Source: Octopus vulgaris | Lineage: Eukaryota | Direction of reading: 5' to 3' | Assembly: GCA_951406725.2 (NCBI GenBank) | Contig: OX597826.1 | Coordinates: 18,476,001-18,540,000, forward strand | DNA length: 64,000 nucleotides | In this document: positions 10,542 through 27,829 of the stretch, in pieces | How the letters are laid out: each line of letters begins with the position of its first letter | Position numbering within the stretch: the stretch's first letter is position 1 | Program-made: the position numbers and the translations under genes | Notes under the pieces: generated by a model | Seen by the model: the letters and a program-made list of their open reading frames with translations, nothing else | The model's database searches: none | Told to the model about the DNA's origin: nothing

Positions 10542-12179
10542 TTATGTGGTGAACTCAAATCGCCAAGGGTGGGCCTTAATTTTGTGCAATCGAAGTGCAT
10601 CTGATCGCTTGCAGTTCTTGCCACAGATTTCACACGTAAATAGAACAAGGCCTGCACAAGTCTTTTCGTGCCGATTTTTATTTGTTCGAAATGTAAATGC
10701 TGCACCACACACTTTACACAATGACCGGTTATGCTCACGCTGGCTATGAGCTTCGAAGATGCCCCAGTTCTGAACTTCGAATGCACAGAAACTGCACTGA
10801 AAGTGCCCTCTTTCGTTGAAATTTGGTTTTTGGCTAATTTGGTTGCGATTATGCTGACTGGCTGATGCTCGGACTTTCCGAGACAATGCAGAGCCAAACA
10901 GCTGTGATGACATAGAAAACTTAGAAGCAGCTCGCTGAAGGGTTACCTCGTATGTTGACTTTACAGTACCACTGGACTGTACTTGGAAATTTGGAGAGGT
11001 TGAGTCTAATGGGGGGAAAGTAAGGACAGAAGAAGACTGGCTTTGCTGAATAGGTGAGCTATTTGGCAAACTATCAGCATGCTGACTTAAATCAACACCT
11101 TCTAAATTCATGTCGGATTGACCGTTCATGTTTTGGTTATTTTCATAGCCATTATCTGGTGGCTCTGGCTTCACAACAACTTCAAAATCTGGGCTTTGTT
11201 GTTCAGAGGACATGTCATTTGAGGCAGCAGAACCATCTGCTCTTAGTGAAGTCTCTGAGACGGAGGACAAAGCAGTTTCATTCTGCGTGGAGTTTTTCAT
11301 CTGCATATTCTCTGTGGTTTCATGATGACTTGCAAAAACATTCATAACCCGACTAGCTTCACTTTGGATCTGCTGTTTCCCACAAAATCCTGAACGTAAG
11401 TGATTGCGTAGGTGGCTATGGCTCCGGAACATAGCACTACACATCATGCATTTTGTAAATCGTCCTCTCTGCGACTGCAAAACGGAGGAACGGATTTTGT
11501 TCCGTTTTGAACTAGTTAGTAACTTTCCCAAGATTGAACCCTGACCCGATGCGGATGCTGCTGAGGCAGCATGAGCTGAATGAAAGCTGGGCATTATTGC
11601 AGATCCTGATGAAAACTGAGAGCTGCTACTTTGAAGTCTCATTGATGTCTCACTTTGGAGTCGCATTCTGCTTTCAGACTCGATGGTGTCAGGGAAAGCA
11701 GTTGCTCCATAAGAATTCTGCAAATGTAAGTTGTTCTCTGCAACAATGCGGCAGCTTTCATCCTTAACCCCAGGGATGTCAAGGACGGAAGAGATTTCTT
11801 GAGCAGATTCATTTCCATAGGAAAGTTCACGTTGGTTGGCATTTGAGGAAACAGATCCATCAATGCCATTGCTCATTGCATAGCTTGGATCATGCCCATT
11901 CTCCTGGCTAGACTGAGCCTGGCAGTGATTGAAGTGGTCATCATGTCTTACAGAGTGGACTGATGACTTTGGACAATTGTTCTTTGATGTGCTACTAATG
12001 CTGACGTTTCTAAGTTTCTCGTGGATCTTTACAACAATCTGATTGTCGGGTTCCTCAGTAGCAATACAGATGATACCATCAATTTCAAGGCGGCTACTAT
12101 GCTCCGAATCTAACTGCTCACAGCACAGCTTTATGACGGCATCATAGATGAGTTTGTTTAATTTCAGTTGGCCAGCCAT
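10542..12179 (-). CDS. Zinc-finger transcription factor, 545 aa: unnamed N-terminal alpha-beta-beta module, disordered S/Q/N-rich linker, 1+3 C2H2/C2HC fingers
   Basis: The only long non-repetitive ORF. ATG at 12179 in AAGATGG context. Strong acceptor ttttctctatttgcAG with the exon starting at 12225; the frame is open to the acceptor, so an N-terminal extension is possible. Fingers: CMMC..HLRSGFC (11382-11450), then CSFC..HSQREH, CKVC..HEKTC and CEIC..HKIKAH (10569-10802). Confidence 0.93.
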   Translation of the reverse strand: MAGQLKLNKLIYDAVIKLCCEQLDSEHSSRLEIDGIICIATEEPDNQIVVKIHEKLRNVSISSTSKNNCPKSSVHSVRHDDHFNHCQAQSSQENGHDPSYAMSNGIDGSVSSNANQRELSYGNESAQEISSVLDIPGVKDESCRIVAENNLHLQNSYGATAFPDTIESESRMRLQSETSMRLQSSSSQFSSGSAIMPSFHSAHAASAASASGQGSILGKLLTSSKRNKIRSSVLQSQRGRFTKCMMCSAMFRSHSHLRNHLRSGFCGKQQIQSEASRVMNVFASHHETTENMQMKNSTQNETALSSVSETSLRADGSAASNDMSSEQQSPDFEVVVKPEPPDNGYENNQNMNGQSDMNLEGVDLSQHADSLPNSSPIQQSQSSSVLTFPPLDSTSPNFQVQSSGTVKSTYEVTLQRAASKFSMSSQLFGSALSRKVRASASQHNRNQISQKPNFNERGHFQCSFCAFEVQNWGIFEAHSQREHNRSLCKVCGAAFTFRTNKNRHEKTCAGLVLFTCEICGKNCKRSDALRLHKIKAHPWRFEFTT

Positions 12180-13577
12180 CTTTGCAGGAGAAGAAATCAC
12201 AGCCAGACTGGTAAGAAACCCAGGACTGCAAATAGAGAAAATAAAAGGTTAGAATAAGGAAATATAAGGAAACAAGCATCAGAGTCAGACAATAAGTACC
12301 ACACACACACACACACACATGCACTCATACATACATACACACACACATATCAAATGGAAAGGAATTAAAGGATTACATTGGTAGATAAGAGTTGTATAGA
12401 GAGAGGCAGTGAAATGAAAATGTAGGAACAGGGAGAAGGAATATGTTGATGTTTTGACAATAAGTAAATGTTACAGAAGAGGGTAATGAGAAGGTAGAAA
12501 CAAGAGGACTACACAGAACAATGGATAAGGAGTACTTGTGATACAAATGTGAGAGAGAGACAGTCAGACAGACTGAGGCAGAAGCATAATATTCTCTAAA
12601 GTGGAAGCTTCCCCAACTGTTTCAGATCAATCAGCATAGAGTGTGGAGGATGGCAAAAATGTTGAAAATATGAATTTGCTAAGGTAAAGATTGTATAAAT
12701 ATGATAAATATAGACTAAAATTAGTAATTAGCAATCAAAGTAAATGACTATTTCTTCCTTCAACTGATAGCCCACTGGCTCAGGTTAAAAGACCAATTTT
12801 ATTTTGCATGACAAAACTTGACCACATCTCTCACAATTGACTCGGCACAAATTGAAAAGAAGTGGCCTACAGAACTCTAACTTGCCCATTTTAGTCATCA
12901 GAACTCTCTCTCCCTCTCTGATTAACTATACATTTTTCAAGCATCTTGAAAATGTCTGTAAAAAAGAGCTTCAAAAACAAAGAAGAACAAAACAACTTCA
13001 AAGAACTCAAGAGCTCTTGGATTCCAGAATAGCTACTGGAGTAAAAAGATTTGTTTCTTGTTGTTAAATTAAATGTTTCAATCAACATAATTTATTGCAA
13101 TCAGATATATCGTTTTAACTTTGATGGTTAAAACCTGCAATTATTTTGAGAACAATAATTAAATATATACACAACTTACTTCCTCGTACTGCCACCTTCT
13201 CTATCCTCCTTCACCACCCCACCTCAAAAGCATTTAATCATTGATCTGTTGAATAATCCAACCTATGCCATCATAAAATTGAAGGGGATAATGATGTACA
13301 TATACATATATAAATATATTAGGTTTGGAGATAATGTATTAGAAGAAATAAGGTACTCAGAAACCTGGATGGTTTTATATTTACAGATTTTTATTAATAT
13401 ATCACATGTTTTTATAAACCATATATAAATATATGAAGTTTTTTTGTAAAAAGCAATTGATACGGTCACAAGGTATATACATGGTGTATATAATACACAT
13501 AATATATAAGTGTGTGTATATATATATATGTATATATATATAAAAAACAAAGTTATTTTATACCACATAGGTAGAAA

Positions 13578-14628: not shown

Positions 14629-15640
14629 AGGCTGAGTAAAAGGTAAGCAACGTTTTGAAATATGAAATTCACGACAATATATTTCAACAATGCGGAAATT
14701 TTATTCATCTAAGTAAGTACCATTAAAATCAACACATTTTTGCCAAGTTACAAGTTTGTTTATTCCGGTAGATGAACTCTTTGAATGCACTTTAAGCATC
14801 AGTTTGATTTTCAAACTCCTTCTCTCGCAGGAAATCATCAAGGTGCTTGAAAGAGTGGTAGTCGGTAGGAGAAAGGTCTGGGGAATAAGCTTCATAGCCA
14901 AGTTCCCTGAACTTCTGGAGCGTCCTTAGTGAAATGTGTGGTCGAGCATGAAAAGTGATTGGCTCTCCTCTGTTGACCACTCTGGGATGGAGGAGCAGCA
15001 ATTTTTCATTCATTTTGGCAATTTCATGGCAATATGTTTCTGCAGTAATGGTTTTTCCAGGTTTTAAGAAGTTATAGTGGATGAGTCCAGCATTACACCA
15101 CCAAACAGTCACCATAACCTTCTTTTTGAAGAGATCGGGTTTAGGGAAGGTTTTCAATGCTTCATTTTGGTCCAACCACTGTAAAGGATGCATTTTTTAT
15201 TATTGTACAGAATCCACATTTCATCACAAGTTACAACATGGTTGAGAAATGGATTGGTTTGAGAAGAAACAACGAACAAATTTCGCATCTGCACATTTCC
15301 TGATTTTCACTCAAATCATGTTGTATCCATTTGTCAAGCTTTTTTGATTTTCTGATCGCATGCAAATGGCTGCAAGCAGTTTTCTGGCTAACATGAAGTT
15401 CTTTTGCCAGTTCTCAAGTGGTTTTATGTGGACTTTTCTCAATGGTGATCTTTAATTGACTGTCATCAATGACAGATAGGCGTCCACTATGCTCATGATC
15501 TTCAAGGCTCAGGTCTCCACTGCAAAATAACTTAAACCACTTTTGAGCTGATCACTCACAGGTCATTTCCTCACAAAATGTTTTGTTGATATCGCAAGCA
15601 GTTTCATGGAGTTGAGAAGCAAAATTGCTCAAATATTACA
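14627..15640 (-). mobile_element. Decayed mariner (Tc1/mariner) transposon
   Basis: ORF 14792-15193: KKVMVTVWW..GLIHYNFLKPGKTITAETYC..HARPH..YSPDLSPTDYH. Frameshifted, and the 5' TIR was not found. Confidence 0.9.
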
Positions 15641-26442: not shown

Positions 26443-27829
26443 AAACCACTGAGCCATTCTAATTGCTTGCTTCTTCCTTTTGTCGTTGCTATTGATATTG
26501 TTGCAGTCATCAAGATGACATTAGAAATGGTTAAGATAGAATTTCAGATTAGGTACTTAGTAATATCAAACTTGATGTCTTCTATCTCTCTTGAGGTGCA
26601 TCGACATACATACCAGTAATATACACTGGTTCATACAATTTACAATACTTCTACCTTTTACAAATGCTGCATTCTCAACCACAAGAGAGTATTACAATTA
26701 TTACTATTCTTTTATTGGGAAGGTAAATAGTAAAGAAACAAAGTGCTTTGGCTCACTGTTCTGAGCTCAGTTCATACTAGAATTGATATCAATCTTTCTA
26801 TCATGCTTTTGTAGAGACAGTATGAAAACTTCACCGTGTAAACAGGTAGCTCAAATATTGTCCTTAAGCATGGCACATTAATTATTCTTGTTTTGGGGTT
26901 GCAGAAAAAAGATTCAGCAGTTTTTTTTTTATTACAACTACTGTACAAGTGATCATAGCTCTTAACAGATGTGTCAAATATCTAGCGCTAATTAGTACTA
27001 TGAAATTGACAAGTTTTTGACTTACAGTCTTGAGTTCAAGGTAAAAATCTATCTGCAATAGGCCAGCATCCAATCCAAATGGGGTTATTTCTCATCTCTT
27101 TAATGCTATGGAAACAAGAGTTGAGAACAACTCTGTGGATCCTGGTGTTTTGGAAATTATTAGCATTTTTATTCTTTTCTCTCTAGTGCAGCTGAAAAAG
27201 AAGGAAGAAATTCTCACCATCTTACAACATTTGGAAAAGGTACTGCTTAACTCTCCTGCCATTTATTTGTTCCCAGACAAATTATTCAATAGAATGAAGT
27301 ATGGTTATTATTTATTTCCAGTGACACCAACTATTTTATAAAGTCGCAATTACAATAGTGTTGATAATTGAAGAGAAAAAAATCTACAAATTTTGATTAG
27401 CTGTCAATAGTCATCTTTCATTATGAAAGAATGGAGCAGTTGTGTCAACTGTATAGAAGATATATAATTGTTAGCAGTGACTGAAAAACTAAAGTTGAAA
27501 GATTACATATTTGGAAGCAACAAAGTTGTTGGGCAAGAAATTACTAAGATGATATCGAGAGGATATGAGTAAGAAATCTCAGTGACATTTTAAAACCAAC
27601 AGACTTGTCCATAATATATAACTGGTATGAATATTTTAACACATATGGAATTATGACACAACACACAGCTACAAAAGCTACTGATCCTGTTCAATGCCAA
27701 TACACTCAAAAACATAGGGGACAGTACAAAAGATGGAAAGCAACACAAAAGGGGGTTACATTAAATTGTTTAAAAAGAAAAGCATTAAAAAACAGTTGAT
27801 GATGATGATACAATGTTCCTGATATAGGA

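Follow-up and report, generated by a model that had tools for sequence, protein, structure and literature searches.

What kind of domain stands at the head of the zinc-finger protein encoded in this stretch of the Octopus vulgaris genome, and what might it do there? Named lineage-restricted heads of zinc-finger proteins include KRAB and SCAN in vertebrates, ZAD and Tramtrack-BTB in insects, and FiNZ in cyprinid fish; no such head was found in the literature for molluscs or annelids, and the module described here would fill that slot. The window, by which we mean the whole stretch of 64,000 nucleotides analysed (contig OX597826.1, positions 18,476,001 to 18,540,000), had been read once before from its letters, and this initial annotation proposed a compact, unnamed N-terminal module acting in oligomerisation or as an effector. 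Coordinates given without a contig are positions in the window.

The protein of 545 amino acids is encoded on the minus strand by a single coding exon (10542..12179; ATG at 12179-12177, stop codon ending at 10542), as indicated by the open reading frame, Pfam matches and RNA coverage. The N-terminal module is followed by a long low-complexity linker and four zinc fingers located by Pfam, namely an isolated finger of C2HC type (aa 244-266; 11382..11450, minus strand) and a C-terminal array of three (C2H2, C2HC, C2H2; aa 462-537; 10569..10796, minus strand). Pfam zf-C2H2 (PF00096) matches in three stretches at 31.4 bits against a cut-off of 25.2, making this a C2H2 protein. The coding exon is covered by two raw RNA runs and two contig sets, and coverage ends at 12225/12226 at a canonical AG acceptor (12227-12226), leaving a 5' part of the exon ahead of the coding sequence (12180..12225, minus strand). 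Both RNA runs differ from the window at fixed sites, and 11 of the 12 read differences inside the coding sequence are silent at the protein level. Upstream there are at least three alternative exons, at 27026 (minus strand), C13:18,562,190 and C13:18,669,824, the farthest lying ∼182 kb from the coding exon; the non-coding exon within the window (27026..27221, minus strand, far end approximate) has a canonical GT donor and is separated by a 14.8-kb intron. Met1 is taken as the start because two of the three upstream exons, those at 27026 and C13:18,669,824, contain in-frame stops and no Met, while the exon at C13:18,562,190 could add 21 N-terminal residues. The first intron also holds a fragmented mariner-type transposase (14792-15551, minus strand), of which a 134-residue piece matches Pfam Transposase_1 with E 9e-23.

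The residues singled out in the initial annotation were recovered in this reading frame at aa 7-56, which is also the extent of the module (∼50 residues; 12012..12161, minus strand) in the family profile alignment; aa 1-56 correspond to 12179-12012. AlphaFold2, run with 146 sequences, predicts an amphipathic helix (aa 2-23; 12111..12176) carrying the near-invariant Leu18-Cys19, a first strand (aa 31-40; 12060..12089) in which Gly35 is 96% conserved, and a second strand (aa 47-56; 12012..12041), all on the minus strand, in agreement with the helix ending in LC and the two strands read earlier from the letters. The strands are predicted to pair as a hairpin through residues 34-51, 32-53, 36-49 and 38-47. 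Disorder of the module is not predicted, its mean pLDDT being 77, and the value drops to 44 past aa 60.

Conservation follows the same boundaries. In comparison with the distant orthologues P0004-P0006, identity is 98.4% over aa 1-62, 98.9% over the final fingers and 92% over the block preceding the fingers, and 57-79% in three blocks of the linker; by these figures the module is under far stronger constraint than the linker. The closest named relative, a protein of Argonauta hians, is 100% identical over aa 1-62. A family HMM built from 455 of 479 rows, after removal of those closest to the two modules of this genome (60% or higher identity to P0007 or to the module of the window), scores the window protein at 51.7 bits, and 1000 shuffles of aa 1-66 reach at most 8.9 bits. 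Judged by this score, the module is a real domain, beyond chance.

Homologues extend well beyond direct orthologues. A profile built from the window module and its paralogue in the same genome retrieves 203 clusters at 50% identity with E≤0.001, here called the first subfamily. In 149 of the best 150 of these 203 the module is N-terminal, its start lying no further in than residue 65, and a C2H2-like motif is present in 117 of the 125 listed matches of at least 300 residues. The other partners, one case each, are a homeodomain (P0114), DDE_1 (P0019) and a sub-threshold BEN domain (P0147), so that the varied C-terminal DNA-binding domains expected from the initial annotation exist in more than one kind, but are lopsided toward fingers. 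In P0019 the module is joined to a pogo-like DDE_1 transposase-derived protein, suggesting either domestication under the module head or capture by a transposon. P0024 from Owenia has tandem modules in one chain (aa 7-55 and 87-139), which suits it to a test of pseudo-dimer formation. The only listed match with an internal module, P0020 (aa 388-439), lies inside an EGF-repeat protein and is probably a merged gene model. Two Mytilus proteins, P0212 and P0215, are named 'KRAB' at source, and the representative of their cluster, P0125, has no KRAB match.

A second subfamily was reached through a motif of the kind that the initial annotation described as opening many uncharacterised mollusc and annelid proteins. 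Scanning metagenome contigs with a short strand-1 motif gave 91 stretches with 93 translated motif matches; five are too short upstream, and 75 of the remaining 88, a count that includes near-duplicates, have a hydrophobic residue and Cys 10-12 residues upstream, a pair lying outside the search pattern. In profile-profile comparison, 42 chosen members match the window's subfamily with 96.3% probability and E 1.5e-9 over 62 columns; the real score is 44.6, 30 column shuffles reach at most 15.6 and the reversed profile 9.6, and when only the part ahead of the selected motif is compared, E is 2e-6. On this profile evidence the second subfamily is homologous to the window's, and the pattern of the initial annotation thus proved both real and related. 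Across both subfamilies Cys19 is present in 99% and Leu18 in 88% of weighted rows, Cys19 being the sole cysteine kept family-wide. The second-subfamily profile finds 188 further proteins, and in all 120 listed of these 188 the module lies inside the N-terminal 60 residues. Many of these proteins have the look of single-exon fragments, and C2H2 fingers occur in 6 of 39 scanned. In a FastTree of 179 rows the first subfamily forms one clade (0.90), and the window gene groups weakly with a bivalve group (0.73).

Sixteen clusters among 30 looked up are species-named, and they come from Argonauta, Ostrea, Saccostrea, Crassostrea, Mytilus, Sinanodonta, Ridgeia and Owenia, all of which we take to be molluscs or annelids. 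By the names attached to these records the family is seen in molluscs and annelids in 16 of 16 such clusters, with other carriers possible among the remaining clusters; the 'spiralian' label given earlier holds for these two groups and, within the 16, no wider. Four Owenia clusters share a longest contig of 35,751,742, which suggests one scaffold, and the Ridgeia-like P0331 group makes up 59 of the 120 listed second-subfamily matches and is strongly multi-copy. Family growth is thus apparently seen in annelids (Owenia and the Ridgeia-like group) instead of this octopus genome. Many predicted reading frames of the P0331 group have no DNA-binding domain before they stop, and may break off where an intron precedes variable 3' exons. 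Shared longest-contig figures, which do not prove one contig, suggest that module genes cluster in genomes: P0026, P0168, P0078 and P0047 share 428,992, and the Ostrea entries P0169 and P0207 share 109,476,225. Three module copies (L101, L102 and L114) lie in both orientations within one 29-kb contig.

The octopus genome itself appears to hold few copies. When the 2.8-Gb genome was searched for the first subfamily with four protein queries and one pattern, only two credible genes came back, the window gene and a paralogue of ∼800 residues lying on the same strand of the contig at a distance of 482 kb (C13:18,968,224-18,970,626, minus strand). This paralogue combines a module 40% identical to that of the window (E 2e-6) with a long C2H2 array and has close relatives in oysters. 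A third match of the first-subfamily motif, on C18, has no score with the family HMM, and an HMM scan between the two genes (C13:18,540,001-18,940,000; 18,940,001-18,964,000 lay outside it) found no further module. The second-subfamily motif gives eight matches in this genome, against nine for a control pattern, none in module context, and three second-subfamily protein queries returned the known paralogue weakly together with chance matches, and no credible member. Two genes is a lower bound, as only the best candidates were scored and intron-split modules escape detection. The accessible text of PMC12513265 gives 1,453 C2H2 proteins for O. bimaculoides and 228 for O. vulgaris, and the words 'N-terminal', 'effector' and 'BTB' are absent from that text. 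The link to cephalopod C2H2 expansion drawn in the initial annotation is unsupported, because two module genes were detected against these 1,453 and 228 proteins, and the module is probably not what lies behind the large expansion in cephalopods.

On the 545-residue protein Pfam reports only zinc fingers, and the best match on the module (E 0.19) is not significant. BTB is absent at E≤10 from the window protein and at E≤1 from 16 near-subfamily and 42 second-subfamily members; zf-AD and KRAB have no match on the window protein, and SCAN and SRF-TF (PF00319) have none on the window protein or on these 16 and 42 members, SRF-TF being absent at E≤1. The predicted secondary structure points the same way: the BTB core comprises about 100-120 residues in five or six helices, SCAN is all-helical, and ZAD has two CxxC pairs, that is four zinc-binding cysteines. 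The earlier view of a compact N-terminal domain distinct from these heads is upheld on both grounds. No description of the module was found in the accessible literature, and a prior mention is possible in subscription papers or in the 2024 review by Bonchuk and Georgiev, cited in PMC11426971, which is said to treat C2H2 domain architecture. Inspection by eye of the accessible parts of the text and Supplementary Data 1 of Wu et al. 2020 (PMC7441323) showed no module. Measured against Pfam, the domain family is apparently uncatalogued, and the role proposed for it is a familiar one.

The predicted fold suggests what that role may be. One face of the hairpin is fully apolar (L31, I33, G35, I37, I39, I48, V50, I52), the other face carries a second apolar patch (I36, C38, V49), and the helix has apolar residues on at least two sides (positions 7, 10, 11, 15, 16, 18, 19). 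A lone helix with a two-stranded hairpin would be unable to bury its own hydrophobic residues and would need a partner; apolar residues on both sheet faces and several helix sides suggest that chains pair. Position and portability point in the same direction, as they match those of BTB, SCAN and ZAD heads, which oligomerise according to the accessible parts of PMC7021899, 10.1101/2025.09.04.674178 and PMC11426971. The module is thus likely, though with substantial reservation, a self-association head through which zinc-finger transcription factors assemble as dimers or larger oligomers, and by analogy a lineage-restricted one in the role of BTB, SCAN or ZAD. In two chains the hairpins would combine as one sheet of four strands with two helices packed behind it, resembling the MADS-box core, with the second patch (I36/C38/V49) left free for dimer-dimer or cofactor contact. 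Such self-association would let a protein with a short finger array bind repeated or distant sites with avidity, and mixed complexes between paralogues may form. Covariation within the subfamilies gave no inter-chain signal in shallow alignments (effective depth 73 and 24).

The same exposed hydrophobic surfaces could alternatively serve a cofactor-recruiting effector in the manner of KRAB or FiNZ, binding one conserved co-repressor or co-activator, with self-association not its main activity. The N-terminal place on zinc-finger proteins is that of KRAB and FiNZ, the near-identity of aa 1-62 among orthologues would suit such a partner, and FiNZ, as described in the accessible part of PMC10547256, provides an earlier example of an N-terminal head confined to one lineage. 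However, an alpha-beta-beta arrangement with two apolar sheet faces seems nearer to interlocking dimer modules than to the short helical KRAB and FiNZ, and an expansion of KRAB type is absent from this genome. A single common partner is also awkward to reconcile with an outer face that reads D34, C38, K51 and H53 in the window's subfamily but Glu, Gly, Asn and Asn or Lys in the second, and we regard this reading as unlikely. Three of these positions bear on a zinc-binding domain held together, like ZAD, by Cys19, Cys38, His53 and Asp34. These residues are strongly conserved in the 206 rows of the window's subfamily (C19 99%, C38 98%, D34 83%, H53 82%), yet the second subfamily, with Gly at position 38 and mostly Asn or Lys at 53, retains the same predicted fold. 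CxxC pairs are absent from aa 1-62, and by strand parity D34, C38 and H53 would alternate onto the sheet face opposite to Cys19 on the helix, all of which makes a metal site highly improbable.

Descent from a known family by strong divergence, for instance from a MADS-box dimerisation core that has shed its basic arm or from the end of a winged helix, is likewise very unlikely, given that SRF-TF is absent at E≤1 from the 16 and 42 members scanned; STN1_2 reaches 14.3 bits in member 1, far below its cut-off of 27.2, and appears in none of the 16 near-subfamily members. MADS homology was also tried directly and rejected, the profile comparison with three MADS boxes of the same genome being at shuffle level (33 of 40 shuffles equal or exceed the real score with the joint profile, 39 of 40 with the near and 5 of 40 with the far), with a shallow MADS profile. 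These boxes are one SRF-like and two MEF2-like (C10:100.89 Mb, C4:77.30 Mb, C4:15.05 Mb).

If the self-association reading is extended, the module might be a major, uncatalogued transcription-factor head of molluscs and annelids: an alpha-beta-beta oligomerisation domain predating the mollusc-annelid split and without a close solved fold, carried by hundreds of zinc-finger proteins, spread by shuffling to proteins with a homeodomain, a BEN domain or a transposase origin, and encoded by clustered genes whose paralogues enter combinatorial mixed complexes like those of insect Tramtrack-type BTB. This larger picture is conceivable but on balance doubtful. The module follows a known design principle and is apparently not a mark of the expanded C2H2 genes of cephalopods, which makes it less surprising. 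At 50 residues it is nevertheless an easily expressed target for work on structure and assembly, and a marker sorting hundreds of 'uncharacterised' or misnamed proteins, including the two Mytilus 'KRAB' entries, into one family.

Among known systems, the MADS-box core of MEF2 and SRF differs in its basic DNA-binding arm, which the module lacks (no basic cluster occurs in the helix columns of the alignment of both subfamilies), and in the module the helix and strand 1 stand about eight residues further apart. KRAB and FiNZ, according to the accessible part of PMC10547256, are likewise short conserved N-terminal sequences on the zinc-finger proteins of one lineage; unlike them, the module shares one exon with its fingers, contains a predicted beta-hairpin and was detected in two copies as against hundreds. 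FiNZ is set apart from it by description and KRAB by the absent Pfam match. With SCAN and ZAD, as far as the accessible parts of PMC7021899 and 10.1101/2025.09.04.674178 describe them, it shares the character of a lineage-restricted N-terminal head on C2H2 proteins, but it differs from SCAN in its predicted hairpin, from ZAD in its lack of CxxC, from both in the absence of a Pfam match, and from both families in lacking a large expansion in this genome. BTB/POZ heads differ in that the module, ∼50 residues long, is predicted in both subfamilies as one long helix and two strands, and multimerisation, shown for TTK-BTB in the accessible part of PMC11426971, is for the module what we infer. It is nonetheless the Tramtrack group of BTB/POZ proteins, an arthropod group in that same account, that the window protein resembles in its N-terminal interaction head, long linker and few C-terminal fingers, and in a head found on proteins with different DNA-binding domains within one animal lineage.
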